A stretch of DNA of 64,000 nt, from contig DFYO01000019.1 of the NCBI GenBank assembly GCA_002381865.1, forward strand, positions 76,202 through 140,201, in the 5' to 3' direction. The position numbers and the translations under genes are program-made. Of the stretch, positions 3,682-60,303 are shown one piece after another (position 1 is the stretch's first letter; the number at the start of each line of letters is the position of its first letter). A model generated the notes under the pieces. The model saw nothing but the letters and a program-made list of their open reading frames with translations, did no database searches and was not told the DNA's origin. This DNA comes from Clostridiales bacterium UBA4080. GTDB taxonomy: Bacteria; Bacillota; Clostridia; Lachnospirales; Vallitaleaceae.

Positions 3682-5604
3682 TTACTTATTCAGGTTTCTG
3701 ATAATATCATATTGCTGGTCAGTACTTTCAATAAAGCCCTGTACCTTGGTTTCGATTCCAGCATAATCATTAAACTCTACAAATGCTTTTCTTAATTTTT
3801 CAATAATATCATCAGGAATATCCTTTCTTGCAGCTAGTGCATCCTTAGGAATATCATCTGTCTTTGATATAATGTTTAGTTCATGAACAGGTATTCCATT
3901 CGCTTCGGCCTTTTCAAACGCTTCATTATAGGTAGCTCCAGCGTCTATTTCCCTAGACATAACTGAGTTGATTACATTATCATGGTTTCCTAAGAAGGTA
4001 ACCTTATTAAAGATTGTGTCAGGATTTAAGCCGCTCTTTTTAATGCTGTCTTTTGCATATAGATATCCTGAAGCACTGTTTTCGTCAACATAACCAAAGG
4101 ATTTACCCTTTAGGTCATTCATATTCTTAACTTCACCGTCTTTTCTAGCTATTATATAGCCATTGTAATAGCTCTTTCCACCAACCTTAGGAGTTACTAT
4201 AGGTTTAACACCACACTTTTCATGAGCATTAACATAGGCAAATGGTGAGAACCATCCAATATCAATAATACCCTTTTCAATACCTTCACTTAATGCATCA
4301 TAATTACGAACAATAATTGTTCTTGCCTTGAAGCCTATGCTTGCACATACTCTTTCTAAGATAGGCACATACATCTTCTTAATACTCTGTGGTTCAGCAA
4401 ATGGGTTAACCCCAAATATAATCTCATTGTCTTTTTTGAAATTAACTGCTTCTTTTTGAAGTACCTCAGCCATTTCACTAATCTTATTACAGAAAACAAG
4501 AATTTCTTTGTTTTTCTTGTTTTGCAAATCTACCATTTGAATAGACTTATAGGTTACGTTGTGTGTTTCTTCTACCGCAATAGCTACATCCTCAATTGCT
4601 TTTTCAATTTCCATTGCACTATTTTTTTGAATTGTCGAAAGTCCGCTAAGTGCCGACAAATCAGTCTTAACATCCTTAAGAATTGTGCTGATTTCTCCAA
4701 TAACTGTTGCTGATTCAGTTACAACCACATCAACATCATTCATCTTATCGCCAATTTCGCTCATTGCAATATTAGTTGCATCTATTTTTTCAAGAATGTT
4801 TTTAACTACGCCTTCAATTACAGAAATCGCATCATCGGTCTGTTCAGCAAGCTTTCTAATTTCACTTGCAACTACCGAAAAGCCTCTTCCTGCCTCGCCA
4901 GCTCTTGCCGCTTCAATTGCAGCATTAAGTGCCAGAAGATTTGTCTGACTGGAAATCTTTCTAATATAATCAACAATTTCATTGATTTTCTTAGAGGCGC
5001 TTAAAAGCTGTTCATTATTGTCAGTAGCTGTCAAAATAATATCAGCAAAGCTCTTCATTACTTCACCAATGCTACTGATAGTTGTTTTGTTTTTATCCAG
5101 CATTTGAATGGATGTTTCAGAATGTTGTTCTATTTCCAATACACTTGAATTCAAATTAGTAGATGTATCCACCAGCTCATTGATGCTGGCATTGATTTCC
5201 TGAGAGCTTGCCGCATTCTGTTCACTGAATTTTTCAATCTCATAGGAGATTTTAGCAAGCTTTTCAAAGGTATTTATATTATCTTGTGAGAGCCATAATA
5301 GCTGCTGTGCATCAAATCCCATGTTCTCTGCTATATTAAATAACTGCTCATCCAATCCCGAACCTACAATATTAATTGCTTTAGTCTTTGGAGCGCTTTC
5401 AGGCGCTTTATATTGCTGCGTCTGCTCCTGTGGTCTTGCAGTATCCTGATTTAATGTGTAATCAGTTAATACTACTGCAATAACTCCTCCAATAACCGCC
5501 AGCAACAAATTGGTAATTCCTTGGGTTCCCATAAAATAAAGGACACCCTGTACTACTGTAATTCCAATTCCCGCTGCCAGATAAAACTTAACTTTAGTAT
5601 TCAT
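3682..5604 (-). CDS. methyl-accepting chemotaxis protein with C-terminal PhnD-like substrate-binding domain
   Basis: Two N-terminal TM helices with no periplasmic domain. MCP signalling core [37 protein letters not shown]. The C-terminal 246 aa carry [20 protein letters not shown], a phosphonate-binding-protein-like motif. Start set at MNTKV (5604), which has a GGGTGG SD. Confidence 0.85.
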
Positions 5605-6034
5605 AGTCAAACCACCCCGCAAAATTTTTTAGTATTTCACCACATAGCCTTTAAGTTTTAAAGCTAAACGCATATCGAACTCTCATTTTTAGAATATTAA
5701 TATTCTATGGAATGCCTTTCTTGTATGTCAGGTAAGTTTTGACTTTCTAAATTAAGTCTAGCTTTCCTATTATAGAATCAAAAGCACTTCTCACACTCTT
5801 ATGTATCACATAAATCAATTATATTCTATGCCTAATTCCTTGTCAAGAGCTCTGGGCTTTATTAACTTTGTATATTTAAAGTTTTTTTAAAAGTATTTTT
5901 TTGTATAAATATTACCGAATATACAGTTTTCTATTGTTTGTACCCTCTATTACTATAGCAATTACTTTAATATTTAAAGAGTTTTATTCGTGACAGAATT
6001 AGTCCACACTTTGTTATTGCTGACAATTATTGTT

Positions 6035-15058: not shown

Positions 15059-17101
15059 CTATTTGCATAAATTAAATTTCCTAGCCTTTGCTGCAACCGT
15101 ATTATGTGTAAGTCCTAATACCTTTCCCGCAGCATTAAAGCTTTTATATTTTTCAAGAGCCTTTTCAATAACAATTTTTTCATATTCTTCCCAGGAAAGC
15201 ATATCCACCTCTTTTTCCACAATGCACTCAAAATCATCTGTTTCTATTTGCCTTTGGTTGTCTAAAATATACATTGGAATATTTTCTGCCCTTACAACAT
15301 TTCCTTCCATTAAAATCATAGTTCTTTCCATTACATTTTCCAGTTCCCTGATATTGCCTGGCCAAGTATAATTCTTTAGAGCCCTAAGCGCCTCTTTCTC
15401 GAACATAATTTTATCTTTTCCCAAATCTTCAGATATTCTTTCACAAAAATGTTCCGCGAGAATCGGAATATCCTCTCTTCGATCTCTTAAAGGCGGCAGC
15501 CAAATAGGAATAACATTAAGACGATAGTATAAATCTTCTCTAAACTCTCCATTTTTTACCATTTGCTCTAAATCTTGGTTTGTAGCCGCTACAATCCTTA
15601 CATCTACCTTAATATTCTTTTCTCCACCTACCCTTTGAAATTCCTTGCTCTGAACTACACGAAGTAGCTTAACCTGCATACTTTTATCAAGCTCTCCGAT
15701 TTCATCTAAAAATATAGTTCCTTTATCTGCTAGTTCAAATCTTCCCAGCTTTGTTTTATATGCTCCTGTAAATGAGCCTTTTTCATGTCCAAATAATTCA
15801 CTCTCAATCAGTGTAGGAGGGATGGCTCCGCAATTTACTCTAACAAATGGTTCTGAAGCCCTAGAGCTAGAATAGTGAATTGCTTCAGCTATAAGCTCCT
15901 TGCCTGTTCCGCTCTCTCCTCTAATTAAAACAGTATATTTGCTTGTAGCAGCTTTTGCTGCTGTTGTCATGCAATCATAAAGCTTTCCGCTTACTCCCTT
16001 AATATTCTCAAATGCGGGGCCTAGCTTTTTAACTCTGATTAATTCCTCCTGCAAATAGTCAGCCTTCGCTGATGCCTTGCTCAGCTTTTCCATTAATGTC
16101 TGAACCTCAGTAATATCCTTAATTATGGATATTCCTCCCATTATCTGTTCATCTACTATTAACGGATTAACATTGCTTACAACTGTTACTCCATTCTCTT
16201 TTTTGCTGATTCCACCCCTTACCGCTTTGCCATGTTCAAGAACCTTAACCCTGTCTCCTTCTGGTGACAATTCCCTGACATTAACTCCTATCAATTCCTT
16301 GGCTTTTTTGTCAATTATTTTGCAATATGCTGCATTTACATAAGTAATTTCACCATTATTATCAAAAAAACAAATTCCATCTTGCACAGATTCCAATATC
16401 AATTGATATTTTTCCTTAAGCTCTTTTATTTCTTTTAATTGCCAAGAAACATTTGTAAGCATTGAAACATCTTCAAATATACTGACTGCGCCTCTTATCT
16501 GGTTTTCAACCAAAAGCGGTGAGCTATTAGTTACAACTGTATAATCACCAATGTTTTGAGTATAGCCAATCTCAGTTTTTTTAGTTTGAACGATTTCTGG
16601 CAAAATAGAGTCTGGGAATACATCTCTTATATCCCTTCCAGCAATTCTATCTGCCGGTACATCAAATATTCTTTCAGCCTCCTTATTAAAAAAGGTTACA
16701 ATATTATTTTCATTTATTACAATCAATCCATTTGCAATGCTGTCGAAAATATTTTCTGCTGTCAAAATATTATCCTGTAAGATACTATCAATATCTCCTA
16801 CCGCATTTTGGTCCAATTCGAAATCACCACCAAGATATTCCGCCATTAATATTGATGCTTCTTCAGCACCCTCACCTTCTGTAAGCATTTCAAACTCTTC
16901 TTTAGCTTTAATCTTCATTGAAATCAATAGCAGAATGCTATTTAGCGGCACCTCTTTATATGCCCCCTTTTTCACCTTAAATTCTACATTGTATTTTTTT
17001 TGGAGTTCCTCTGCTTTCTGAACTATCATTGCCGCAACTCTTGCGTGCAAGCCCTTAGCATGTTGCATAACAATTTTTTTACTTATACTCTTTTTAGCCA
17101 T
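15059..17101 (-). CDS. sigma-54-dependent transcriptional activator with N-terminal HPr-like domain, two PAS-like regions, AAA+ domain and HTH
   Basis: N-terminus [12 protein letters not shown] (HPr His motif). AAA+ domain: [21 protein letters not shown] (GAFTGA variant), VRIVAATN. C-terminal HTH: [21 protein letters not shown]. Confidence 0.88.
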
Positions 17102-17143
17102 AATATTACCCCTGTTATCAATTAATAGTCACATTATTATAAT

Positions 17144-17159
17144 AGCAAGAATCGTGCCA
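17144..17159 (-). promoter_or_regulatory. sigma-54 (-24/-12) promoter in front of the EBP gene
   Basis: Minus strand reads TGGCACGATTCTTGCT. It ends ~43 nt upstream of the EBP ATG at 17101. Confidence 0.75.
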
Positions 17160-17203
17160 AGTATTATTTGACTTTTTTTCTTGCTATCTGTTAATTATCT
17201 TCT

Positions 17204-17237
17204 TATTTAGATAAAGTTGTCAATAATTATCTAAATA
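17204..17237. promoter_or_regulatory. perfect 11-bp inverted repeat, candidate enhancer (UAS) site
   Basis: TATTTAGATAA-N12-TTATCTAAATA. The centre lies roughly 60 nt upstream of the -24 element at 17154..17159. Overlaps the rpoN stop codon. Confidence 0.4.
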
Positions 17238-18580
17238 TATTCCCTTCTTTTATCTGCTGCCATTATTCCAAGCTGACTTCTGTATTTTGCTACTGTTCTT
17301 CTGGAAATCTTCATGCCTTCTTGCTGAAGCTTCTCAACTATCATCATGTCGCTCAGTGGCTCTCTCTTATTTTCAGCTTTAACAATACTTAATATTGCTT
17401 GCTTTATGCTATCAGAGGAATTATCCTGTTGAATATTTTTCCCAACGTTTTTGCATGAAAAAAAATATTTCAGAGGGTACAATCCCCATTTACACAGGAG
17501 ATATTTATCATTTATTGCTCTGCTAACAGTGGATTCATGCATTTGTGTAATATCTGCAACGTCTTTCAAGTTTAGAGGTCTTAAAAAGCCTTTTCCTTTT
17601 TCAAAAAAATCCTTTTGCTGTTTAGCCAATACCTCTGCAATTTTTTCTAAGGTGTCGTTTCTCTGATTAATGCATTTTAATAGCCAACTTGCATTACTGT
17701 AATTATCACCCAAATACTTTACCAGCTCTTTATCTTGAGTTAATTTCAAATATTTACAGTATTCTGTGTTTATCTTTATATTTGGAATATTTGCTTCATT
17801 TATAGAAATAACCAACCCCATTTCACCTTGTTCAATCACAATATCAGGCTTGATATATTGAGTAATTCCAGAGTAAAATGAAGCTCCTGGCTTAGGATTA
17901 AGCATTTTTATTTCTCGAATAAGCTCCTGTGTCTCAGCTATTTCAATTCCCAGTTCTTCTGCTATATGCTTGATTTTATTATCAGCAATCTTTTCCAAAT
18001 ACTTATCAGCAAGCAGATATGTCAATGTATTCTTTTTCCCCTGATTTTCAAGCTGTATCAGCAAACACTCTCTTAAGCTCCTAGCCCCAACTCCTGAAGG
18101 CTCCATCTTTTGTATTATTACCACAGCCTTCTCTGCTGATTTTTTATCACATCTGAGTTTTTTTGTAATTTCCTCAAGCTCAAAGCTTAAATATCCTTTT
18201 TCATCTAAGCTTTCAACAAGAAATTCTACTATCAATTTAGTTTTTTTATCTAGTTTAAGAAATATTAATTGTTCTTTGAGGAACTCTGATAATGTTTGTT
18301 TAATAAACGATTCATCCTTTATTTCATTTGAAAAATCCTGGTCGTCTTGTCCCTTTTTGTTTTTATGCTTGTAATAATCCGCATCCTCCTGATTCCTTTG
18401 TATTAAAACAGAGCTTTTATCTGATTGTTCGTCATATTCAAGTGCAGGATTACTTAATATTTCTTCATGAATCATTTCTGACAATTCTTCGTTGCCTAGC
18501 TTTAAAATTTTTAATGAATATTCCATTTTTGGCGTCAGTATTAAGTTTTGGGAGTAAATCATATCCATATCAAAATTCAT
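17231..18580 (-). CDS. rpoN: RNA polymerase sigma-54 factor
   Basis: Region I LILTPKMEYSLKILKLGNEELSEMIHEEILSNPALE. C-terminal RpoN box HESTVSRAINDKYL. Confidence 0.93.
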   Translation of the reverse strand: MNFDMDMIYSQNLILTPKMEYSLKILKLGNEELSEMIHEEILSNPALEYDEQSDKSSVLIQRNQEDADYYKHKNKKGQDDQDFSNEIKDESFIKQTLSEFLKEQLIFLKLDKKTKLIVEFLVESLDEKGYLSFELEEITKKLRCDKKSAEKAVVIIQKMEPSGVGARSLRECLLIQLENQGKKNTLTYLLADKYLEKIADNKIKHIAEELGIEIAETQELIREIKMLNPKPGASFYSGITQYIKPDIVIEQGEMGLVISINEANIPNIKINTEYCKYLKLTQDKELVKYLGDNYSNASWLLKCINQRNDTLEKIAEVLAKQQKDFFEKGKGFLRPLNLKDVADITQMHESTVSRAINDKYLLCKWGLYPLKYFFSCKNVGKNIQQDNSSDSIKQAILSIVKAENKREPLSDMMIVEKLQQEGMKISRRTVAKYRSQLGIMAADKRREYI

Positions 18581-18596
18581 TAGCTGTATTCCTTCT

Positions 18597-19790
18597 TTAT
18601 CCCTTTTTAATAGGAAGCCTTATCAAAAAGCTGCTCCCTTGATTTTCTTCACTTTGAGCTTCAATTTCTCCCCCATGCTTATTAACAATAATGTCATAAG
18701 AAATACTTAATCCAAGCCCCGTTCCTCTTTGAGAGGCTTTAGTTGTGTATAGCGGATTGAATATCTTTTCTAGATTTTCGTTATTTATTCCCGGTCCGTT
18801 ATCAGATATTCTAATGCAAACATATTCACTTTCTTTATAGGCATTTATATGTATATGCCCTCGGTCTTCACGATACTGTTTTCTTATTGCTTCAATTCCA
18901 TTAAGCATAACATTCAAGAAAACCTGTCCTAGCTGACTTGAATTTGCCCATATCTCCGGGAGCTTATCTATTTCTTTTGTAATATCAACCGAATCCTTAG
19001 CCTCATTTGCAATAACTATAATTATTTGATTAATAAGACTTTCAATATCGCATATATCATATTCATTTTTAGCCTTTGCCCAAGACAGGTTCAAAAGCGA
19101 TTGAATTATCTGTGAAACCTTTTCTAAAGAGTCCTTTGAGGAATCTATGATCAAACGTACTTCTTCAAAATTCCCCTCTTCAAATTCTCCTTTTTTAACC
19201 TTCTCACAGTAATTTGCCAGCTGTTGAAGATTAAGATACGCTTTTTCAATAGGTTGGTTTATTTCATATCCTATCCCCGCTGCAATCTCTCCAATATTAG
19301 ACATTTTTCTTGATTGCACCAAATGAAACTGTGCATCCTCTAAGAGCTTGTTGGCAATTTTCAGTTCTTCATTTTGACCCTTTACAACCTCCAGCATTTC
19401 TCTAAGCATTCTTGTATTGGCCCTTGTTCTTGCTGCTGCACTAACTCTGGCTTTAAATTCAATTATTTCTATAGGCTTTTGAATATAATCATTTGCTCCG
19501 TATTCAAAGCATGATTTTAAGCTCTCCTTATCATCAAGGGATGTTAACATAATAATCTGAATATCGTTAAATGCATCAATATCACGTACATTTCTAAGAA
19601 CTTCAATTCCGCTCATTTCTGGCATAATAATATCAAGCAAAAGAATATCTATTGCTTCTGTTTCTAATATTCCGATAACATCTTGCGGCCTTTGGCACAA
19701 GATTCCCGTATAATCATTAAAATAGGTTTTCAGATAACCGTCAGCAAACTTTAAATTTAGTTTGTCATCATCTACTACCAGCACTCTCAT
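18597..19790 (-). CDS. REC domain fused to a histidine-kinase-like core whose H-box His is replaced by Tyr
   Basis: REC: VVDDD, LLLDIIMPEMSG, MLTS, IQKPI. H-box position reads AAGIGYEINQPI. The N, G1 and G2 boxes are intact (NVMLNGIEA, DNGPGI, GTGLGLSIS). Confidence 0.8.
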   Translation of the reverse strand: MRVLVVDDDKLNLKFADGYLKTYFNDYTGILCQRPQDVIGILETEAIDILLLDIIMPEMSGIEVLRNVRDIDAFNDIQIIMLTSLDDKESLKSCFEYGANDYIQKPIEIIEFKARVSAAARTRANTRMLREMLEVVKGQNEELKIANKLLEDAQFHLVQSRKMSNIGEIAAGIGYEINQPIEKAYLNLQQLANYCEKVKKGEFEEGNFEEVRLIIDSSKDSLEKVSQIIQSLLNLSWAKAKNEYDICDIESLINQIIIVIANEAKDSVDITKEIDKLPEIWANSSQLGQVFLNVMLNGIEAIRKQYREDRGHIHINAYKESEYVCIRISDNGPGINNENLEKIFNPLYTTKASQRGTGLGLSISYDIIVNKHGGEIEAQSEENQGSSFLIRLPIKKG

Positions 19791-19982: not shown

Positions 19983-20065
19983 CAAGAATAGCTTTCGGTG
20001 AACGCGTTTCTTGTATAATAGAAAAGTTTGGTCTCTTGCAAGCAAGACGAACTTTCCTATTATAC
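19983..20065. repeat. structured intergenic repeat, copy 1 (conserved 30-nt head plus long bulged hairpin)
   Basis: Positions 19983..20061 match 55853..55931 at 74 of 79 positions by my alignment. The hairpin spans 20013..20065. Confidence 0.8.
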
Positions 20066-20095
20066 AAAAAAATGACTGGACATAATGTCCAATCA
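20066..20095 (-). terminator. rho-independent terminator of glmS
   Basis: TGATTGGACA-TTA-TGTCCAGTCA followed by T7 on the minus strand. Confidence 0.75.
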
Positions 20096-20125
20096 TTTAT
20101 ATGCTGTAATATTTATTATTTATTT

Positions 20126-21958
20126 TTATTCAACTGTTACACTTTTTGCCAGATTTCTTGGCTTGTCAACATCATGGCCAAGACCGCACGCAATATAATA
20201 CGCAAATAACTGTTGCGGTATGTTTACAAGAATAGATGTAAACATCCAGTGGGTTTTAGGAACATATATTACCTCATCTGCAACCTTTTTGATTTCTTCA
20301 TTTCCTTCAAGTGCAATTGCCAAGACCTTAGCTCCTCTAGCTTTAACTTCTTTGATATTGCTTACAGTTTTTTCATACAATTCCTCTTGTCCAACTAATC
20401 CTATGAGTAATGAACCCTTTTCAATCAATGCTATAGGCCCATGCTTTAGCTCTCCTGCTGCGTAAGGTTCAGCATGAAGATAAGCGATTTCTTTTATTTT
20501 AAGCGCACCTTCCATAGAAACAGCATAATCAAGTCCTCTTCCAATATAGAAAACATTTTTCATGCTAATAAATCTATCGGCAAGCGTTTTAATGTAATCT
20601 GCCTGCTCTAATATAGTCTCAACCTTTCCCGGCAAGCTATAAAGCTCTTCTTTGATTTCAACAAATTCTTCATCTGTAATCTCACCAAGCTCCATTGCAA
20701 TTTTTGTTGATATCAAATACATTGCACATAGCTGTGCAGAATATGCTTTTGTGGAGGCTACCGCTATCTCTGGTCCTGCCCAAGTATATAACACATCAGA
20801 TGCTTCTCTTGCAATTGTTGAACCCACAACATTGACTACGCCTATCACATGTGCTCCAGCTTTTTTGGCCATTCTAAGTGCTGCAACAGTATCAGCAGTC
20901 TCTCCTGACTGAGATACAACAATCATCAATGTGTTTTTATCAATAATAGGTTCTCTATATCTAAACTCAGATGCTGTTTCAGCAACTACGGGTATTCTAG
21001 ATACTCTCTCTATTAAATACTTGCCTACAAATCCGCTATAAAAAGCTGTCCCACAGCCGATAATATATATTTTGTTGATTTTTGAGAGTTCTTTTTTAGT
21101 AAGCTTTATATCGTCTAAAATAATTTCATCCTGATCCAAAGGTATTCTTGGCATCAAGGTATCTCTAATTACCTTTGGCTGTTCAAAAATCTCCTTTGCC
21201 ATAAAATGTTCATATCCACCTTTTTCTGCAGCAGCAATGTCCCAAGTTACCTTAAAAATCTTTTTCTTGATTTCCTGTTTTTTGCTGTCAAAAAGTGTCA
21301 CCCCTTCCTTTTCAACAATTGCAATTTCGCTATCCTCAAGCAAATAAATATCTCTGGTATATTTCAAAATTGCCGGAATATCTGATGCTATAAAGTTTTC
21401 ACCTTTTCCCAAGCCAATAATTAAAGGGCTGTCTTTTCTAGTTGCAATAATCTTGTTTGGATTGTCCTTGTGCATTACCGCAAAAGCATACGAGCCTTCA
21501 ATTCTTTCCGTAGCCATAATTACAGCATCAAAAAGATTCTTAGTAATACTATAGCAATAATCTATAAGCATAACAGCTACTTCTGTATCTGTTTCAGATA
21601 CAAATACATAGCCTTTAGACTCTAGCTCCTCTTTTAAGGTTAAATAGTTTTCAATAATACCATTATGTACTAAGGCGATTGTTTGTTCAGTATTCATGTG
21701 AGGGTGAGAATTAACATCAGAAGGTTCTCCATGTGTAGCCCATCTAGTATGAGCAATTCCCATATTCCCCTTCGCAGTATCCTTTTCTAGCTTTTCCTCC
21801 AAATTAACAAGTCTGCCTTTTGTTTTTACCAGCTTAATATTGCTATTATAAACAGCAACACCAGCTGAATCATAGCCTCTGTATTCTAACGCCTTTAGCC
21901 CGTCTAGCAATATAGGCGTTGCTTGCTGTTCTCCAATATATCCAACAATTCCACACAT
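20126..21958 (-). CDS. glmS: glutamine--fructose-6-phosphate aminotransferase
   Basis: MCGIVGYIG N-terminal nucleophile, tandem SIS domains, C-terminal AKSVTVE. Confidence 0.97.
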   Translation of the reverse strand: MCGIVGYIGEQQATPILLDGLKALEYRGYDSAGVAVYNSNIKLVKTKGRLVNLEEKLEKDTAKGNMGIAHTRWATHGEPSDVNSHPHMNTEQTIALVHNGIIENYLTLKEELESKGYVFVSETDTEVAVMLIDYCYSITKNLFDAVIMATERIEGSYAFAVMHKDNPNKIIATRKDSPLIIGLGKGENFIASDIPAILKYTRDIYLLEDSEIAIVEKEGVTLFDSKKQEIKKKIFKVTWDIAAAEKGGYEHFMAKEIFEQPKVIRDTLMPRIPLDQDEIILDDIKLTKKELSKINKIYIIGCGTAFYSGFVGKYLIERVSRIPVVAETASEFRYREPIIDKNTLMIVVSQSGETADTVAALRMAKKAGAHVIGVVNVVGSTIAREASDVLYTWAGPEIAVASTKAYSAQLCAMYLISTKIAMELGEITDEEFVEIKEELYSLPGKVETILEQADYIKTLADRFISMKNVFYIGRGLDYAVSMEGALKIKEIAYLHAEPYAAGELKHGPIALIEKGSLLIGLVGQEELYEKTVSNIKEVKARGAKVLAIALEGNEEIKKVADEVIYVPKTHWMFTSILVNIPQQLFAYYIACGLGHDVDKPRNLAKSVTVE

Positions 21959-41863: not shown

Positions 41864-41912
41864 TATTTTTTATTTTTTTATTTATCCTCCGAATAATATT
41901 GTAAAATACGTA

Positions 41913-41948
41913 AAAGAAGGAGCTATGCTTCTCGCTTAGCTCCTTCTT
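41913..41948 (-). terminator. hairpin terminator, exact copy of 44243..44278
   Basis: AAGAAGGAGCTA-loop-TAGCTCCTTCTT 12-bp stem followed by TTTTA on the minus strand. Confidence 0.7.
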
Positions 41949-42186
41949 AAAACAGCTTTAACTATCCCCATTCTTTTTTGCCTTGCACAAATATCTTATT
42001 CCTATTTCCGAAAGTAAAATCACGCAATGTTACTATGACAACTATCCTGCCCCCAGAGTTATTGATAGTCTATTAATGTTTTTTATCTTATACCTCAATA
42101 TATCACATTTAATCTTAAATATCTAAGTTCTTATTTCCCGTAAATCATAACACTATTTTACAAGGATTATTCCACACTGTCACAAA

Positions 42187-43685: not shown

Positions 43686-44242
43686 TTTCCGTTTTTGTCG
43701 ATTGCTCCCACACTTATTAACTCTAGATAAAAAGTATAGCATACATTTAATGCCTATATTTCTCCCTCTTGCATAACAACACAAATGATTGCTACTTTAG
43801 TATATTAAGTAACCGATTATTATTTTCGCGCGCAAATAATAAATCAATTATTAATACCAGATTAAACTGTTTATAGCTTATTCAATTTTTTCAATAGGGA
43901 AAATTTTAGATATTCCCCGCCTCAGATTTCTTTTTAGATTGGGTTGGTTAATTTTTTCACCAACATGGTATATTATACCCCCCCCCGAAATGTCAAGCAC
44001 TTTTTTTGCCGTAAACTTTTATTGCGTAAACTTTTATTGAAACTTCCCGTTTTTCGGCATTCGGGAAGTTAGTTTGACAATAACTACGAGGGTTTTTCTT
44101 ATATTTTCAATAAATTATACAGCTATTGTAAAAATCAGAAATGACTTCTATATTATAAGACTGCATAAAAGACATCAATAACCTAAAATATAAAAGACGA
44201 GATTTCTCACTTTATAAGCATTAAGATAACTTTTAATATTTT

Positions 44243-44278
44243 AAAGAAGGAGCTATGCTTCTCGCTTAGCTCCTTCTT
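44243..44278 (-). terminator. hsp20 terminator, exact copy of 41913..41948
   Basis: Same 36 nt. Starts 9 nt after the hsp20 stop codon. Confidence 0.75.
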
Positions 44279-44287
44279 TAAGCAACC

Positions 44288-44734
44288 CTATTCAATTTCT
44301 ATTTCTTTAGCTTTAGGCTTTACAGGCTCTTGCTTTGGAAGTGTAAGAGTTAATATTCCATCCTCAAGCTTTGCTGCTATTTCTTCTGATATTACATTTT
44401 CAAGTCTAAAAGACCTTTTCATATTTATTGCCTTACGTTCCTTTCTAATGTAATTATCCTTTTCGTGATTACTTTCTTCTCTTTTCTCGATAGCTATAGT
44501 AAGCAAATCATTTTCAATATTAACCTTAATTTCTTCTTTTTTCAATCCTGGAACCTCAGCAATTATTTGAAATTCATTTTCTTCTTCCTTAATATCAACA
44601 TTCAAACCAGTATAAGCTGTTCCAAATGAAGGAAAAAAGCTATCTTCAAAAAAACTGTCAAACATACTGTCAAAATTCCATAAGCTATTATTTCTTTGTA
44701 CCTCATTTTTTCTGATTGGTGATAATCCAAACAT
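44288..44734 (-). CDS. Hsp20/alpha-crystallin family small heat-shock protein
   Basis: Alpha-crystallin domain (FQIIAEVPGLKKEEIKV...GILTLTLPK). Confidence 0.9.
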   Translation of the reverse strand: MFGLSPIRKNEVQRNNSLWNFDSMFDSFFEDSFFPSFGTAYTGLNVDIKEEENEFQIIAEVPGLKKEEIKVNIENDLLTIAIEKREESNHEKDNYIRKERKAINMKRSFRLENVISEEIAAKLEDGILTLTLPKQEPVKPKAKEIEIE

Positions 44735-49704: not shown

Positions 49705-50277
49705 TTAGTTGATAAAGGTGATTTTGCCGTGTTTAAAACGATCTACAATAACTAAGGATTCCAGGTTAACTCCTGCTTCCCTAAGCTTATTGCCTCCATT
49801 TTGAAAGCCTTTTTCAATGACTATTCCAACACCGCTTACATTAGCTTGTGCCTGCTCTACCAAGTCAATGAGTGCTAAGGCTGCTTTTCCATTTGCTAAA
49901 AAGTCATCTAGTATTAGTACGTTATCTCCCTTATGAATGTATCTTTTAGAGACTTGAATGTCGTAATATTTTTCCTTTGTAAAAGAATACACAACACTTT
50001 TGTACGTTTCTTTGTCAAGATTTCTTGACTCTGTCTTTTTTGCAAATACTACCGGAACCTTGAAATACATTGCAGCAATTGATGCTATAGCAATTCCTGA
50101 AGCTTCTATTGTAAGTATTCTTGTGATATTTTTGTCTTTAAATCTATCATAAAATTCCTTGCCGATATCTTGAAATAATTCTATATCCAGCTGATGATTT
50201 AAAAACGAATCTACCTTTAATACTTCCTCAGAAACAACCCTGCCTTCATCCAATATTCTTTTTTTCAAAGATTCCAT
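49705..50277 (-). CDS. xpt: xanthine phosphoribosyltransferase
   Basis: 190 aa. MESLKKRILDEGRV...LKVDSFLNHQ...VLILDDFLANG PRPP loop. Confidence 0.9.
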   Translation of the reverse strand: MESLKKRILDEGRVVSEEVLKVDSFLNHQLDIELFQDIGKEFYDRFKDKNITRILTIEASGIAIASIAAMYFKVPVVFAKKTESRNLDKETYKSVVYSFTKEKYYDIQVSKRYIHKGDNVLILDDFLANGKAALALIDLVEQAQANVSGVGIVIEKGFQNGGNKLREAGVNLESLVIVDRFKHGKITFIN

Positions 50278-50355: not shown

Positions 50356-50402
50356 TTCCTACAACCTCAACAGCTTGAAAAGCTTAATTGACATTGTGTG
50401 AA

Positions 50403-50470
50403 CTCGTAGCCTGTAACTATTTACGGTAGTTTGTAGAAACATTTGACCCATATTGTCAAATTTATACGAG
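50403..50470 (-). ncRNA. purine (guanine-class) riboswitch aptamer
   Basis: Minus-strand RNA: CUCGUAUAAAUUUGACAAUAUGGGUCAAAUGUUUCUACAAACUACCGUAAAUAGUUACAGGCUACGAG. P1 is CUCGUA/UACGAG. The UAUAA, AUAUGG, GUUUCUAC and CCGUAAAU cores are conserved, and a C precedes the P1 3' strand. Confidence 0.8.
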
Positions 50471-50752
50471 CTGTAGCATTTAACTGCTACCTTTGAATTT
50501 TAATATAAATTATAAGTAAAATCAAGTTTATTTTTAGAAAATCCTCAACTTATTTTATTACAATAAAGATTAATTATCTTTAAAATCAAATATTTTTTTG
50601 TAAATGCTTTGCTAATTATTAATCAAGTTTTTTGTTAAACTATTATGTAGTTTTTAAAACTATATTTAATAATATGCTTGTTTATTTTTTTAAATTATGA
50701 TATTCTATTAATGTATTACTTTGATTATCAAACTATTGTAAGGAGTATGTAA

Positions 50753-51903: not shown

Positions 51904-53610
51904 TTATATATTAAATCTCTTAACCTGCTTTTCTAGATTGTTTGCTATTGCTACAAGCTCTCTCATTGAGTTTAAGACCTCTTGAATATTATTTTTCTGG
52001 CTTGCCACACTTTTTTCTATTGAATCTGAGCTTTCATAGGTTGTCATAGCAATGCCATGTATACTATCCATACTTTTTTCAATCTCATTCTTTTTAGTTG
52101 AAAGATCCATTATTTTCTTTTGGCTATCGTCAATCAAGCCATTAATAGCTCCTATAATATTAAATATTTCATCCATTTCTTTGGTGTTTTCTTCAAACAG
52201 ACTAACTGTTGTTCTGTATTCAGAATCCATACTATCCTTTTCATTAATAATATTGTTAATCTCTATTTGTATTTCCGACATTAAATTGCCAATTTTGCCC
52301 GTTGATTGAGCAGATTGTTCTGCCAGCTTTCTTATTTCATCTGCAACAACTGAAAAGCCTTTTCCTGACTCTCCTGCTCTTGCGGCTTCTATTGCTGCAT
52401 TTAATGCCAAAAGATTAGTTTGTTCGGATATCTGCATAACGATTTTTAAAATATCTCCAACATTCCCTGATACATCCATAAGCTTATTAACTGCCAACGA
52501 TGTTTTATCGCTTGCATTGCTAAGTCGGTCAATGCTTTCTCTCTCTGTGTTAAGAATTTTTTTATTATCCTCAATTGTTTCATTAACGGTTGTAAGCTTA
52601 TTTTTAAAATCATCCATCGTTTCAAGAATACTTTTTATAGCCTCGAAAACATATTTGAAGCTTTCAGAGCTGCTATCTATATTTCTTATTGTATTTTCTG
52701 CATCTCTGTCTAAGATATGTGCTTTTTCTAAAAGAACTCTGATATCATCATCAACATTATCAACTTTGTTTTGTATTTTCTCTGTATTCTTTTCAAGAAC
52801 CTTTGTCTGCTCAGCAATGCTTTTAATGACTTTTCTCAAAAATTCCAGCAATGCATTTGTGTTTTGTGCTAACTCTCCTATTTCATCATTTGTTTGAACC
52901 TCAAGCCTCTGGGTTAAGTCTCCATTACTTGTGGATAATTCATATACCTTTCTGTTAATCTGCAAAATAGGTCTTGTTAGCTTATCAAAAACAAATGATA
53001 TAACAAAAAATACTAAAATCAATGTTGCAATTACAAAGATAACAATATTTCTTACTATTGCCTGTAAAGCCGTTTTAATGTATCCAGCCTCAATATCTGC
53101 ACCTAAGGCTCCAACTACTTCACCATTTTTATCAAAAATCGGCGAATAAGCGGATAAAAATACCCCGTATTCATCCTGATAAAGCTCATCTTCCACTCCT
53201 GCCTTGCCTTCCTTAAGTGCTGAAGCTATAGTAGCCGGCAGATTGTCAAAGCTGTCATACTCATCCCCAATTGCAGTATCACTCTCTGCATCTGAATCAA
53301 TTACAAAAAGAACCTTATCTCCCTCTGCTTTTAGGGTATAAATGTATTCAAGCTCATTTTCATTAACTATTTTTGTAAAATAATCAAATAGCTTCTTATA
53401 GCTTGCTCCCTTTTCCTTTTTGTTGTAAATATCTTCGTGAATCTCTCCGTCAACATAATTAGAACCAGCCGATACAACCACCTTCAGTTTTTCCTGCAAC
53501 GAACTCATATATTGTTTTTCTATCAGATTATACACAAAAATTGAGCTCAAAACCATAATAACCAATACAAGAGCTTCTACAACAATAATATTTTTTAATT
53601 TAATACTCAT
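51904..53610 (-). CDS. methyl-accepting chemotaxis protein with extracellular Cache-like sensor and HAMP domain
   Basis: TM helix, ~170-aa sensor, second TM helix, HAMP. Signalling core [37 protein letters not shown]. Confidence 0.9.
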
Positions 53611-53633
53611 TGTCTACCTCCATGAATTTATTT

Positions 53634-54386
53634 TTAGTTTAGGATAAGTCCTACAGGGCAATGATCTGAACCTTCAATCTCGGTATAAATAAGAGCATCT
53701 TTCATTTTATCCTTTAAAGCTTGTGAAACACAAAAATAATCAATACGCCAACCGACATTGTTTTCTCTGGCTTTAAACATATATGACCACCAGGTATAAG
53801 CATCTTCTTTCTCCGGATAAAAATACCTAAAGCTATCAACAAAACCATTATCTAGCAAATAACTCATCTTTTCTCTTTCTTGATCTGAAAATCCTGCATT
53901 TTTTCTATTAGACTCGGGATTTTTTAGATCTATTTCATTATGAGCTACATTTAGATCCCCACAAAAAATTACGGGCTTTTCTTTTTCAATTTCTTTTAGA
54001 TAAGAAAAAAAAGCATCCTCCCAAAGCATCCTATAATCAATTCTTGCCAATCCCCTTTGAGAATTAGGTGTGTACACAGTAATTACGTAATACTCCTCAA
54101 ATTCCAAGGTTATGACCCTTCCTTCATTATCATGCTCCTCTTGTCCAATTCCATACTGAACCTTTAAGGGCTCTTTTTTTGTAAATATTGCCGTTCCAGA
54201 ATACCCCTTCTTTTCTGCATAATTCCAGTACTGATGATAATTCTTTAAGTCAAGCTCAATCTGACCTGCCTGCAGCTTAGTCTCTTGCAGACACATTATA
54301 TCCGGATTTTCTTTTTCAAAAAAATCCATAAAGCCTTTTTTTACACACGCTCTTATCCCATTAACATTCCAAGAAATCAGCTTCAT
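53634..54386 (-). CDS. xth: exodeoxyribonuclease III
   Basis: MKLISWNVNGIRA...CLQETK...GDLNVAH...SDHCP. Confidence 0.93.
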   Translation of the reverse strand: MKLISWNVNGIRACVKKGFMDFFEKENPDIMCLQETKLQAGQIELDLKNYHQYWNYAEKKGYSGTAIFTKKEPLKVQYGIGQEEHDNEGRVITLEFEEYYVITVYTPNSQRGLARIDYRMLWEDAFFSYLKEIEKEKPVIFCGDLNVAHNEIDLKNPESNRKNAGFSDQEREKMSYLLDNGFVDSFRYFYPEKEDAYTWWSYMFKARENNVGWRIDYFCVSQALKDKMKDALIYTEIEGSDHCPVGLILN

Positions 54387-54612
54387 AGTGTCTCCTTTAA
54401 CGTCTTAATTCTAGTTACATTTTTACAAATCATTAAGTTCATGCTTACTAAATATTATAAGGGTTTTTATATATTTCTGCAAATGCTATTCTCAAAATAT
54501 GTTATAATAATTTATATAACAGCATAACTTATACAAGCGGCTTACGACTATCTTCATTTGTTAAATAACTACAAAGGAGGTGCAGCCTTATTGAGAATGA
54601 GGCTAAAAAATT

Positions 54613-55767
54613 ATGGACTTTGAATTTTCTACTTCAAACAGAATTATTTTTAAAACTAAAGGCATTCTAGAACTTGGCAACCATGCTCTTAAATTAGGAA
54701 CTTACCCCTTTATCGTAACTGGAAAAAACAAAAACAGACTTAAACCTTTGCTTGCTGCATTAAAACATGTATCTATGGATTACGTTCTTTTCTCTGTTGA
54801 GGATGAACCTGATATTAATCAAATTCGTGAAGCTGTAAAACTAGCTCTAGACTCCTCATGTAATATGGTTATTGGTTTTGGAGGTGGTAGTGCCTTAGAC
54901 AGTGCAAAAGCAATCGCTATACTAATGAATAATCCTGGTGATATTTTAGACTATCTTGAAATCATTGGCAAAAATCAAGAAATAAAAAGCCCGCATTTAC
55001 CTTTGATTTTAATTCCAACAACCTCTGGAACAGGTTCTGAGGTCACCAAAAACTCAGTACTAACTGACACGAATACTAAAATCAAGGTAAGCCTGAGAAG
55101 TCCAATGATGCTTGCAGATTTAGTTTTTATAGACCCTGCCTTAACCGTATCAATGCCCCCTCAAATAACCTCCAGTACAGGTTTAGATGCTCTTACTCAG
55201 GTTATTGAGCCATTTGTATCTTCTTATGCAAATCCTATCACCGATACATTTTGTCGCGAGGGTATTAAGCGCATATCTAGCTCGCTGAAAAAAGCATATC
55301 AAAACGGTAATGATATTACAGCACGTGAAGATATGGCTTTGGGTAGCTTGTTTGGTGGGCTTGCTCTTGCTAATTCTAAGCTTGGTGCAGTTCATGGCTT
55401 TGCTGGTGTAATTGGCGGTAAATTTGGTGCACCTCACGGATTTATCTGTGCTGCTCTATTGCCTAATGTAATAAAAGTCAATATTAACGCTCTTAAATCA
55501 AGAAACCTTGAAAGCCAAGCTTTATCCCGTTATACAGAATTATCTCAAATCCTTTTAGGTAAAGAAAATGCTTTACCTGAGGATTGTCTTATTTGGCTTG
55601 AAGAATTGTATTCTGCCCTAAAAGTAGAAGGTCTCTCCAAATATGGCATAACTCAAGACTTATTAGATGAAATAATAGAAAAATCAGCTTCCTCAAGTAG
55701 CATGAAGGGAAATCCAATAACACTTACCTATGAAGAAATGAAAGAAATATTAGTTAGCTCTTTATAG
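54613..55767 (+). CDS. iron-containing alcohol dehydrogenase
   Basis: GFGGGSALDSAKA and TTSGTGSE motifs. Confidence 0.85.
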   Translation: MDFEFSTSNRIIFKTKGILELGNHALKLGTYPFIVTGKNKNRLKPLLAALKHVSMDYVLFSVEDEPDINQIREAVKLALDSSCNMVIGFGGGSALDSAKAIAILMNNPGDILDYLEIIGKNQEIKSPHLPLILIPTTSGTGSEVTKNSVLTDTNTKIKVSLRSPMMLADLVFIDPALTVSMPPQITSSTGLDALTQVIEPFVSSYANPITDTFCREGIKRISSSLKKAYQNGNDITAREDMALGSLFGGLALANSKLGAVHGFAGVIGGKFGAPHGFICAALLPNVIKVNINALKSRNLESQALSRYTELSQILLGKENALPEDCLIWLEELYSALKVEGLSKYGITQDLLDEIIEKSASSSSMKGNPITLTYEEMKEILVSSL

Positions 55768-55852
55768 CAATTTTGGAAATACTTAGCATATTATTTTCCA
55801 CTTAATTCTTACTTGGTTATGAACCAAAATCAAATATTTCCATAGATTTCTA

Positions 55853-55934
55853 CAAGAATAGCGTTCGGTGAACGCGTTTCTCTTAGAATAGGAAAGTTTG
55901 GTCTCTTGCAAGCAAGACGAACTTTCCTATTCTA
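55853..55934. repeat. structured intergenic repeat, copy 2
   Basis: See copy 1. The hairpin at 55884..55934 has a perfect 15-bp outer stem. Confidence 0.8.
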
Positions 55935-55936
55935 TT

Positions 55937-55973
55937 AAAAAAGCTCTTAACCAATTTGGCTAAGAGCTTTTAA
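55937..55973. terminator. bidirectional terminator (gap and Fe-ADH)
   Basis: AAGCTCTTAACCA-ATT-TGGCTAAGAGCTT flanked by an A-run and a T-run. Confidence 0.8.
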
Positions 55974-55987
55974 TAATTAACTATTAA

Positions 55988-57025
<1,038 letters not shown>

Positions 57026-57155
57026 TTACTAATTGTGTATTTATTTCAATAAGAAGGCTATGCCCTCTTAAAGCTAAGCTTTCTTTTCTGAACGCCGCTA
57101 CAGTGTTAATTTTATCACAAGAATCTTGTACAGTAAATAGTTTTTCGTTAATTTA

Positions 57156-57902
57156 TTATTGTTTTTTTACTATCCAAAATCTGCATTCATCTGCAAATTC
57201 TTTTACTATATCGTTTTCCTGAACAATTTCATCTCTGAATATATCCTCCAGCAATAAAAGGTTATTTGCAGCTAAGCATTTTAATACTTCTTCTCTATCT
57301 GGAACATGTATAAACATTTCTCTATCGTGAAAGCTATATATTAAATCTCCGAATTCAACAAGTCTTCTATCCTGTCTGTTTTTATTCCAAAGATATTTTT
57401 CCTGTTTCCAATACGATTCATTATCTTTTTCCTTGTCTCTGTCGTGAGTTGTAAAAATAAAAACACCGTCTTTTTTCAAAATTCTAGCTATCTCAGCCAT
57501 AGACTTGAGTCTGTTAGTCTCTCCCGGAATCTGCATAATCCCGTTAAAAGCAAAAATAACAGCGTCAAAAGATTCCTCTTCAAACGCAAGGTCAGTTGCA
57601 TCTCCAGTATAAAACGGTATGTCTATTTGCTTTTGCCTGCAAATTTTTTTTGCTTCAGCAATCATATCTTCACTTAAATCAACACCGGATATATTATTAT
57701 AGCCTTTCTCAACAAGTCCAAAGGCTACTCTTCCTGTTCCACAACCTAAATCCAAAATTTTGTCTGTTGCCTTTAAATATCTTTCAAATACTATTTCCTC
57801 AGATTTCCAGAGGCTTACTGCTCTGGTCGCATCCGAATACTCCTTAACAGAGTCTTCACCTGCATAAGAATGCTTAATAAAAGCTTTGTCCACTATATCC
57901 AT
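57156..57902 (-). CDS. class I SAM-dependent methyltransferase
   Basis: ILDLGCGTGR motif I. Confidence 0.8.
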   Translation of the reverse strand: MDIVDKAFIKHSYAGEDSVKEYSDATRAVSLWKSEEIVFERYLKATDKILDLGCGTGRVAFGLVEKGYNNISGVDLSEDMIAEAKKICRQKQIDIPFYTGDATDLAFEEESFDAVIFAFNGIMQIPGETNRLKSMAEIARILKKDGVFIFTTHDRDKEKDNESYWKQEKYLWNKNRQDRRLVEFGDLIYSFHDREMFIHVPDREEVLKCLAANNLLLLEDIFRDEIVQENDIVKEFADECRFWIVKKQ

Positions 57903-58381
57903 TATTTCTTTTTGTCAGGCTCCTTTATAGCTATATGCAATTCAATTAGATTATCACCCTCATAGGTAATAGGCATACAAATCATCTTGGCATTGCCTAC
58001 ATTCATTGATAATGTGTTACTCACAAATAATGTCGGCGGAGTTATGTCTAGCTTAATCCCCATATTAAAAAAAGCTGTTACAGCATTTCCCATTGTCATG
58101 TTCATAAGCTCTGCAATTGCGCTTCGTGCCATATCGTTAAGCTCTGGCACTGGCATTCCCATCATCATTCTTGACGCAACATCACATGCAACTGATTCTT
58201 TCATGCTTAAGATTACCTGACCATGCAGTTCTCCAGTTATACCAATCATTACTATAAACACTGTTTCCTCATAAGCCATCTGTGTAAGATATGGGCTATC
58301 AGTCTGTATCTCCATTCCACATACTTCTCTTAAAACATAGGTTGCGGCTCCAATTACCGGATTCAAGTACGTTACATTCAT
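57902..58381 (-). CDS. cheX: CheX-like chemotaxis phosphatase
   Basis: CheC/CheX-type fold motifs (AIAELMNMTMGNA). Start at MNVTYLNP (58381). Confidence 0.65.
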   Translation of the reverse strand: MNVTYLNPVIGAATYVLREVCGMEIQTDSPYLTQMAYEETVFIVMIGITGELHGQVILSMKESVACDVASRMMMGMPVPELNDMARSAIAELMNMTMGNAVTAFFNMGIKLDITPPTLFVSNTLSMNVGNAKMICMPITYEGDNLIELHIAIKEPDKKK

Positions 58382-58593
58382 ATTTTCACCCCTGCTTTGT
58401 AAAATTTGTTCTAGCAATTTCTATATTTGCTTGAAATTATATTTCTAATTCATCCTAATAATTATTTTTTATAAAATAGATGTATATTTATAATAACACA
58501 TATATAGAATGGTAGGCAAGATTTTATATTTTCAAACTTTATATCCAGCTTAGTAGTATAAATATATCCAAAAAATTCTTTTATTTATAAATG

Positions 58594-60303
58594 TTATCTC
58601 AAAATTTTCCTTACAAAGGCTACTGTAAAATATGACATCAAGAAAACTCCTGCAAAGCCTTGTACCCCTGATATAATCATCGCCTGGATATTTCCCGGAT
58701 TAATATCGCCATAGCCAATTGTAAACATTGTTGCAAGGCTGTGATATAGTGCATTGATTAGCTTTGAAGCATAAGGAAAAAGCTCTTTATCTATATATTT
58801 TTTATCACCATTTAAAATAACAAAGGGTAATGTATAAAAAAACGCAAAGCCTCCAATTGTCATAATCATAGTTCCTAAAATTCTAAAGGGATTTGTCGCG
58901 TAATGTCCAATAAAATCAAGAAAAAACCACTTAATTAAAAATTCTATTTTTCTCCTTAATAATTTAATATTATTTTTCTTGTGATATGTAATATCTTCAC
59001 CATAATATTCCGAAAGACTCAGGCATCTTCTAAATTCCAGATATGCATAATCTTCGTCATTATATTGTCCTATTTCATGAAAGTTTTCCTTAAGCATACG
59101 AAACTGATTTGCTTTATCTATATAGCTTGTATCATCGCCTTGTGCATATATCATTGTCTTAACATCATTCATTATCCAATCTAAATATATATGCCCAAGG
59201 TTTTTTGTATTTATAAAATTAATACATCCTACATTCTTCTCTTTTTTGTTTGTAGGAATCATATCAAAGGTTTTCTCTACTATACAATTTTCCACCGTTA
59301 GTTTATCACACTTTTCTAATCCCATAACAACATGCTCAACAAACAGGCAATTCAAAAAATTCAAGTTTGAAATCACGCTATCTAAAAAATAAATGCTTCT
59401 ATTTCTAAATCTGACTGACTTAAATAGAATATATCCCTCTTCCATTTTAATATTATTCATATTAAATTTTCCGAGTCCTGTTTTTGCATACTTAAAATGC
59501 ATAGTACAGTTTTTCAGCTGGCAGAAGCTAAAATCTATGTTTCCATTCCCAAAGCTTGTATCGCTAAAGCTAATTTTCCCATCACTGAAGCTAGAGCCAA
59601 AAAATATTACCTCTCCATTGTGAAAATTTGTGTTTCTAAAGGATACTCCTCCTTTCCCAAAATCTGATCCCGAAAAATCAACTCCGCCCACACCAAAAAC
59701 CGTAAAGTCAAACTCAACTATTCCTTCTCCAAAAATTGCTCCGCTAAAATTCAAGTGTGCATTTTCAAAATTGCTGCATTTGAAATTTACATCACCATTG
59801 CCAAAATCAGTGCTAAAAAAATGTACAATCTTACCATGGAACTTTGTAGATGAAAATATTTTTTCTCCTGTACCCATTTTTATTCCGCTAAAATTAACAG
59901 TTTCTGACAAAAAAACTGTTTTGTGAAAGTCTATCTTTCCATTTCCAAAGCTGCAATGTGCAAGACTGAATCCGCCCTCTCCAAACACCATATTATCAAG
60001 GATCAAATCTCCTTGAAAAAAACATTTCTCAATATGAAAGGAACTAATTGTTCTGTAATCCTCCCATTCAAATAAGCTACGATATTCATGAATATTAAAA
60101 TCCTCTAAAAAAAGCTCTTGAAGTATAAATGATGAATCTGTGTTCTTGATATTTATAATATCTTGCTTTTCAAGATATCCATATCTTTTCTCGTCAATTA
60201 TTTTAGAATCCTCATCTAAGTATTTAACAATAACTGTTTTATCAGTATGAACTCCACATTTCAAAGGAAAAGGCTCATCCTCGTAAACAATACGATATCT
60301 CAT
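58594..60303 (-). CDS. two-TM potassium channel with a large N-terminal tandem-repeat (solenoid-like) domain
   Basis: C-terminal pore ATMFTIGYGDINPG flanked by two TM helices. About 20 consecutive ~12-residue repeats of the form (V/I)xFxxxxFxxGx, for example VDFSGSDFGKGG VSFRNTNFHNGE VIFFGSSFSDGK ISFSDTSFGNGN. Confidence 0.8.
   Translation of the reverse strand: MRYRIVYEDEPFPLKCGVHTDKTVIVKYLDEDSKIIDEKRYGYLEKQDIINIKNTDSSFILQELFLEDFNIHEYRSLFEWEDYRTISSFHIEKCFFQGDLILDNMVFGEGGFSLAHCSFGNGKIDFHKTVFLSETVNFSGIKMGTGEKIFSSTKFHGKIVHFFSTDFGNGDVNFKCSNFENAHLNFSGAIFGEGIVEFDFTVFGVGGVDFSGSDFGKGGVSFRNTNFHNGEVIFFGSSFSDGKISFSDTSFGNGNIDFSFCQLKNCTMHFKYAKTGLGKFNMNNIKMEEGYILFKSVRFRNRSIYFLDSVISNLNFLNCLFVEHVVMGLEKCDKLTVENCIVEKTFDMIPTNKKEKNVGCINFINTKNLGHIYLDWIMNDVKTMIYAQGDDTSYIDKANQFRMLKENFHEIGQYNDEDYAYLEFRRCLSLSEYYGEDITYHKKNNIKLLRRKIEFLIKWFFLDFIGHYATNPFRILGTMIMTIGGFAFFYTLPFVILNGDKKYIDKELFPYASKLINALYHSLATMFTIGYGDINPGNIQAMIISGVQGFAGVFLMSYFTVAFVRKILR

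Follow-up and report, generated by a model that had tools for sequence, protein, structure and literature searches.

An 82-nucleotide repeat found directly behind intrinsic terminators is probably a small mobile DNA element

A non-coding 82-bp sequence that occurs in the 64,000-nucleotide stretch of DNA analysed here (the window) and elsewhere is probably a non-autonomous mobile DNA element, a small dispersed repeat moved in trans by an HUH-type enzyme. Its most informative feature, missed by the earlier note on this DNA, is its placement directly after intrinsic terminators. The novelty lies in this homing to terminators, an unusual target for so small an element, which sets it apart among miniature non-autonomous elements.

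The repeat, its copies and an allele without it

Positions 19983-20061 and 55853-55931 are identical at 74 of 79 positions (93.67%) by BLAST and share one orientation, in agreement with the earlier note. Comparison with an empty allele, described below, shows that the real unit is 82 nt long (19983-20064 and 55853-55934), with 76 of 82 positions identical. In an ungapped 82-mer scan of both window strands, the background identity had a mean of 22, a standard deviation of 4 and a maximum of 40-41, and the pair scored 76; a third, degenerate copy scored 51. With filters off, a covariance model detected no copies in the window besides these three, designated W1 to W3:

W1: 19983..20064, minus strand; reads TATAATAGG...GCTATTCTTG; 76/82 identical to W2, 86.6 bits with the covariance model
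W2: 55853..55934, minus strand; reads TAGAATAGG...GCTATTCTTG; delimited by comparison of the filled and empty sites
W3, degenerate: 5693..5774, minus strand; 51/82 identity, repeat family D1, oriented as W1 and W2

The ~30-nt head that had been called almost invariant is confined in the window to W1 and W2, and its pattern matched in none of 100 shuffles. Both copies fold into the hairpins that had been described, a short one and a long bulged one, on either strand and with z-scores of -4 to -6 against shuffles, whether folded as RNA or as DNA. The pair T20016:A20062 of W1 corresponds to G55886:C55932 of W2 (pair 3-49 of the alignment) and is a compensatory change, as had also been noted. W3 adjoins an MCP gene (3682-5622), within its leader, and has mostly lost the fold. 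A consensus sigma-70 promoter, TTGACA-17-TATAAT, lies just upstream of W3 in the same leader (5816-5847, minus strand).

Exact look-up of the GAPDH protein of the window retrieved contigs from hydrocarbon-degrading methanogenic enrichment metagenomes. One of them (L021) is identical to the window and carries W2, whereas two contigs of a sister strain (L019 and L020) encode the identical GAPDH protein and are without exactly the 82 nt of W2. The empty site reads ...GAGCTTTTTTAA^TAGAAATC..., or equally TTTTTTAA^TAGAAATC (L019, L020), and the filled site ...TTTTTTAA-TAGAATAGG...GCTATTCTTG-TAGAAATC... (window, L021; hyphens mark the ends of the element). A 5-nt TAGAA stands at both junctions, which makes the boundary formally ambiguous at W2 alone; it is fixed because the similarity between copies begins with TA(G/T)AAT and stops with CTTG in the other copies. 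By itself, the empty allele is equally compatible with insertion and with precise deletion. In contigs from the SCADC sample a copy at another locus is present (L034) and W2 is absent (L019). Empty sites were also sought for W1, W3 and both copies on L029 (listed below), and none was found.

The sister strain is 99.6% identical to the window on the gap side of W2 and 97.9% on the ADH side, so that the divergence between strains (window about 52000-60000 against L019 and L020) shifts at the W2 indel. This change suggests a recombination breakpoint at or near the element.

Four further copies were found:

L029a: in a biogas-fermenter MAG labelled Epulopiscium sp. (GCA_012799415.1); well preserved; found by a metagenome scan with a 21-mer of the hairpin
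L030 (the same as L033 and L034): on another contig from the same enrichment metagenomes; 80/82 identical to W2; found by a six-frame peptide search via the ORF P0001
Fifth copy: about 3.65 kb beyond the window start, after an FMN riboswitch; well preserved; found by contig extension, partial in L038 and complete in L053
L029b: L029 1292-1373; degenerate, 82 nt, ends TTTTCTTG; covariance model 25.6 bits, E about 1e-3

Seven copies are therefore seen, five well preserved (W1, W2, L030, the fifth copy and L029a) and two degenerate (W3 and L029b), at unrelated loci and in two unrelated hosts. Fold stability is almost gone in the two degenerate copies (z about -1 to -2). Assembled contigs are interrupted at the element (at the end of L023, the start of L032, in L038 and at the ends of L054 and L055), as expected for a multi-copy repeat. 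The exact 82-nt presence and absence, the dispersed copies, the assembly breaks and the degenerate copies favour the REP/MITE-like element among the options of the earlier note, the others being a family of small RNA genes and a site for protein binding. From these sequence comparisons, the element appears to be a mobile or recently mobile DNA insertion.

Wider searches returned little. The 18-nt head gave 18 matches in 185,579 species genomes (596 Gb), where about 17 are expected by chance for an 18-mer, and all were bare 18-21-nt matches in unrelated, mostly high-GC genomes. Viral contigs scanned with the head and with the hairpin gave nothing real, and blastn against plasmids and phages gave nothing. 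The metagenome scan with the hairpin 21-mer returned the L029a locus only and not the contigs of the window itself. Since the genome and metagenome scans miss the copies of the window, their negative results say little about copy number in the host.

The ORF that led to L030 (L030 4001-4576, protein P0001) has 191 aa and no Pfam domain and reads through the terminator and the whole element, which encodes the last ~35 residues. Either this end of the protein is an artefact of gene calling, or the C terminus was extended recently.

Position behind intrinsic terminators

All five well-preserved copies start 1-2 nt past the T-tract of a stable stem-loop and run in the same direction as the terminator. 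At both W1 and W2 the order on the minus strand is gene, strong stem-loop, T-tract and element. W1 lies downstream of glmS (20126-21958, minus strand) and about 190 nt upstream of a response-regulator/histidine-kinase gene, and W2 lies between the convergent genes gap (55988-56998, minus strand) and Fe-alcohol dehydrogenase (Fe-ADH). The two terminators of the window that carry an element are as follows:

glmS terminator: 20065..20098, minus strand; 13-bp stem, then TTTTTTTG; fold z -5.3; W1 starts at the next base
gap terminator: 55935..55971, minus strand; 15-bp stem, its 3' arm continuing into TTTTTT and on to AA; fold z -6.4; W2 starts at the next base

The left flanks end at the junction with ...CAGTCATTTTTTTG at the glmS copy (W1), ...GAGCTTTTTTAA at the gap copy (W2), ...GGACGCTTTTTTA at the copy behind the P0001 gene (L030), ...CAGGGTTATTTTTG at the copy behind the FMN riboswitch RF00050 (the fifth copy) and ...CCAACTGTTTTTTATTTT at the copy behind the lysine riboswitch RF00168 (L029a). 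The latter two sit in riboswitch leaders, between the terminator of the switch and the regulated gene, which is asd for the lysine switch and ribD for the FMN switch, and the element may affect riboswitch control in these leaders. The riboswitches concerned are:

FMN riboswitch: L038 15667-15779, plus strand, and L053 10876-10956
Lysine riboswitch: L029 1045-1226, minus strand

The probability of landing behind a terminator by chance is at most 0.016 per copy and about 1e-9 for five copies, a generous upper bound that assumes a single terminator for each gene, a landing window of 5 nt and insertion confined to intergenic DNA. A strict terminator count, which missed the gap terminator, was left out of these placement statistics. 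Most terminators of the window are without an element, and the degenerate copies have no clear terminator upstream, L029b having a T-run only and W3 nothing recognisable.

Counted from the end of the terminator stem, the insertion point is 7-9 nt downstream in four of the five copies, and the end of the element itself lies 8 nt past its own stem. The left flanks are T-rich, with variation in the last two nucleotides (AA, TG, TA, TG, TT and TT); their tetranucleotides are TTTG (twice), TTAA, TTTA and TTTT (twice), with T kept at position 2. With this variation, no strict target tetranucleotide stands out.

With respect to replication, the minus strand carries 53 of the 56 long ORFs, and the plus strand has a GC skew of -0.24 (window 1-64000). 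The whole window is on one replichore, with genes co-oriented with replication. GC skew and ORF strand bias together identify the strand on which the element reads as the lagging-strand template, which is the position expected under single-strand transposition.

Several other features of these loci were recorded. W1 is upstream of a minus-strand cluster (15059-19790), and no connection between this cluster and the element was found. The cluster encodes a hybrid of response regulator and histidine kinase, sigma-54 (rpoN) and an activator of sigma-54 that carries PTS-regulation domains, after which come dihydroxyacetone kinase and PTS genes. A purine riboswitch (RF00167, 65.5 bits; window 50387-50489, minus strand) lies upstream of an xpt-like ORF (49705-50277) and an ABC-transporter cluster, and its terminator carries no copy of the element. 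An unrelated palindromic hairpin of 50 nt, AAAGAAGGAGCTA...TAGCTCCTTCTT, is repeated with 90% identity at 41905-41954 and 44235-44284, the second copy directly after an hsp20-like ORF (44288-44734, minus strand); the pair may belong to a further small repeat family or reflect duplication of a terminator. At the FMN riboswitch, one contig (L052 10757-11162; Logan contig SRR636597_938) continues differently from the other three, with the switch falling inside the conserved riboswitch core. It was left out as a probable chimera, formed in assembly at a conserved RNA element.

Anatomy and proposed mode of movement

The element consists of two hairpins joined by an A-rich linker, AGAGAAAC:

Long imperfect hairpin, nt 1-51: 55884..55934 (W2) and 20014-20064 (W1), minus strand; from the folds and the pairing alignment
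3' end module: 55853..55875 (W2) and 19983-20005 (W1), minus strand; flagged as terminator-like on both strands by the scan

In the long hairpin the lower stem has 15 bp and the upper stem 5 bp, the loop has 8 nt, and there are two bulges, of one and of two bases. The 40-nt top of this hairpin in L029a, from the unrelated biogas MAG, is identical to that of the window copies. The 3' module is a GC-rich 6-bp stem-loop (55861-55875) followed by a T-rich 8-nt tail, TATTCTTG (55853-55860), which is the end of the element. In L029a the short hairpin has a different sequence with the same shape in the same place, AAAAGTGC-GTTTT-GCACTTTT. Every copy with a recognisable 3' end terminates in TTCTTG. 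There is no convincing similarity between the long hairpin, with its GTCTTGCTTGCAAGAGAC core, and the short one (GCGTTCACCGAACGC).

Across five copies, 95% of the cells of the pairing alignment are paired and 4 of 20 pairs have changed on both sides; the observed covariation score is reached by none of 500 shuffles, and the signal is gone when the 3' partners are slid, in a comparison of five sequences only whose alignment was fitted to the model. The compensatory changes fit a structure required for mobility as well as they fit an RNA function. Terminal inverted repeats are not conserved: the only candidate is a 7-nt AGAATAG/CTATTCT near the ends, which is offset by one base and absent from L029a. 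No consistent target duplication was found, as W2 has TAGAA and the flanks of W1, L030, L053, L029a and L029b do not match.

Rfam searches of the whole window and both loci, at the gathering threshold and at E up to 10, retrieved the purine riboswitch and one tRNA, besides chance hits to miRNA and other models; the element matches no family even at the permissive threshold, its chance-level hits all scoring far under the gathering cut-offs. A match to sau-19 was rejected, as it covers the gap terminator only. The copies have no promoter in common on either strand; promoter-like sites close to W1 are in the flank or missing from W2, where none was found. An outward sigma-70 promoter in W1 (TTGCAA-16-TATTAT) was discarded because it is not kept in W2 or L029a, and a sigma-54 promoter in the hairpin because, with the right GG/GC spacing, it has a poor context and no gene downstream. 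Also rejected were a Tn7 attTn7 site downstream of glmS (it lacks the end features of Tn7, and copies other than W1 lie away from glmS), a dif/Xer site (no XerD-arm motif) and an integron attC site (wrong order of boxes).

For a mobile element of this kind, the mobilising enzyme would be encoded elsewhere in the genome and act in trans, an HUH-type transposase such as those of IS200/IS605 or IS91 being the best candidate. Such an enzyme would recognise a stem-loop plus T-rich tail on single-stranded DNA and cut about 8 nt past the stem. Terminators would then act as surrogate right ends and so be used as insertion sites; that is, genuine terminators would serve as landing sites because they look like the right end of the element itself. 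Excision would be precise, with the terminator restored.

This reading draws on the lack of inverted repeats and of a duplication, the subterminal hairpins, the strict orientation, the exact empty site and the position on the lagging-strand template. Together these features are the signature of single-strand HUH transposition (IS200/IS605, IS91). Against the reading are the dissimilarity of the two hairpins, the variable flank ends, the small number of copies (seven), the TAGAA repeat at W2 and the degenerate copies, which have no clear terminator before them. Neither the window nor about 100 kb of additional loci yielded a transposase, a reverse transcriptase or a longer element with the same ends. 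A bolder version, in which the element is the first member seen of a new class of DNA transposon that finds its sites by shape, with a right end that mimics a terminator and an enzyme that accepts any genuine terminator, including those of riboswitch platforms, is tentative and on balance doubtful.

Comparison with known families places the element near several of them. Classical MITEs carry inverted repeats at their termini and duplicate a target of fixed length, often TA. Like these and other small repeats (Correia, RUP, ERIC, BOX), the present element is small, non-coding, multi-copy, intergenic and hairpin-forming and varies in presence between strains, but it has no conserved terminal inverted repeat or fixed target duplication and keeps a strict position and orientation relative to terminators. 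The derivatives of IS200/IS605 (PATEs, and REP/REPIN with RAYT) lack terminal inverted repeats and target duplications, have hairpins at their ends, insert orientation-specifically by a T-rich motif and excise precisely. The element shares with them the absence of inverted repeats and duplications, the subterminal hairpins and a fixed orientation beside T-rich sequence. In IS200/IS605, the left and right hairpins are alike and the target is a fixed word of 4-5 nt, whereas the hairpins of the element are unrelated (a 51-nt structure and a 6-bp stem) and its flank ends vary. Neither a Y1 transposase nor a matching full-length insertion sequence was found in the window or the fetched loci. A 2026 survey reported a strong excess of terminator-like sequences directly upstream of insertion sequences, greatest for IS200/IS605 (PMC13548323).

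Members of the IS91 family make no target duplication and have subterminal palindromes and a terminus cut after CTCG or GTTC; they insert by CTTG or GTTC, with T at position 2 (PMC13181058). As in IS91/ISCR and, more distantly, Helitrons, the element is without a target duplication and has imperfect subterminal palindromes at both ends. It ends in CTTG in every copy with an intact 3' end, and its flanks (TTTG, TTAA, TTTA and TTTT) keep T at position 2 but are not the canonical CTTG or GTTC. An HUH Y2 transposase was found neither in the window nor in the fetched loci. We know of no miniature elements derived from IS91 and of no targeting of terminators by IS91. The element was filed under neither IS200/IS605 nor IS91, because at least one defining feature of each was not seen in the loci covered.

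Other explanations and what the element means

The exact junctions could also have been made by a site-specific recombinase (tyrosine or serine type, IS110 type with a bridge RNA, or a hairpin-reading integron-like enzyme) that inserts a circular mini-element at pseudo-sites in terminators. The joined ends TTCTTG/TAGAAT (circle junction ...CTATTCTTG/TAGAATAGG...) resemble the targets TTTTAA/TAGAAA at W2 and TTTTTG/AGAAAG at W1, and the TAGAA identity at both W2 junctions is like a crossover core. The attC core of integrons has the consensus GTTRRRY, to which the joined ends GTAGAAT (W2, L030), GTATAAT (W1) and GTTAATT (L029a) bear a loose likeness. The identity at the junctions is however limited to one site, and the right flanks TTTGTT, TTCAAA and TATTAT share no core with the start of the element; the attC boxes are misarranged, with GTT in the 5' arm of the hairpin and AAC in the 3' arm, no recombinase gene is nearby, and the targets are too varied for a sequence-specific recombinase or a bridge RNA, so that this explanation is unlikely. 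Retro-mobilisation, in which an RNA copy is inserted after terminators by group IIC intron machinery or by T-tract-primed reverse transcription, would account for the placement, as two papers describe group IIC introns as inserting, sense-oriented, directly behind an inverted repeat and T's (PMC1702495, PMC4748821). The niche and the orientation rule are those of all five well-preserved copies, and the opposite strand of the element abuts an A-run, as in retroposons. These introns, however, are at least about 600 nt long, comprise six ribozyme domains and usually contain an ORF for a reverse transcriptase, whereas the element has 82 nt, too few for a group II ribozyme, and no ORF; Rfam gives it no match to a group II intron or other ribozyme, whether at the gathering threshold or with E values as high as 10. 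Moreover, the A/T-run is part of the empty site and not of the insert, all copies have exact ends and none is truncated at its 5' side, and a reverse transcriptase is seen in none of the fetched loci, all of which makes this route highly improbable.

The remaining explanations place the element in the service of the host. A structured small RNA or an RNA that acts in cis, made either from a promoter of its own or by transcription running through the terminator, would agree with the stable folds on both strands, with the compensatory changes in the long stem, with the short hairpin of L029a, which is swapped and yet still paired, and with the two copies in riboswitch 5' leaders, which are necessarily transcribed when the switch is open. 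Against it, Rfam gives no match at the permissive threshold, the sister strain dispenses with the W2 element and the downstream neighbours are unrelated or convergent genes. An independent small RNA gene is unlikely because no promoter is conserved between copies on either strand and, on the plus strand, no T-tract follows the element in L029a. The loss of the fold as old copies decay indicates that the resident sites are not under selection, which argues against an RNA function in the host, and such a function is considered quite improbable. The emphasis of the earlier note on a conserved structured element and its option of a small RNA gene family are not supported, given the lack of an Rfam match, of a conserved promoter or terminator of its own and of a fold in old copies. 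Selection by the host could alternatively have kept the element for better termination, as a back-up terminator, a read-through insulator or a stabiliser of 3' ends; its constant place directly behind a terminator and its short hairpin with a T-rich tail, like a weak terminator, would suit this role. Nevertheless, two copies lie between a riboswitch terminator and asd or ribD, where a constitutive extra terminator would block expression, the sister strain manages without the element and so do most terminators of the window, leaving this role very unlikely indeed.

Small dispersed repeats are widespread, but to our knowledge very few mobile elements home to intrinsic terminators, group IIC introns being the textbook case. 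An 82-bp element that homes to terminators without terminal inverted repeats or target duplications would point to structure-guided targeting, which would be identifiable through the partner enzyme, and the bolder version with site choice by shape, if true, would provide a DNA-level counterpart of a terminator homing known only for group IIC introns. In practical terms, the element breaks metagenome assemblies, makes false ORF extensions, as in P0001, and can pass for a novel structured RNA. For its hosts, the element would be a natural example of a "safe harbour" strategy, that is, of insertion where transcription has already stopped, and within riboswitch leaders it might alter regulation.
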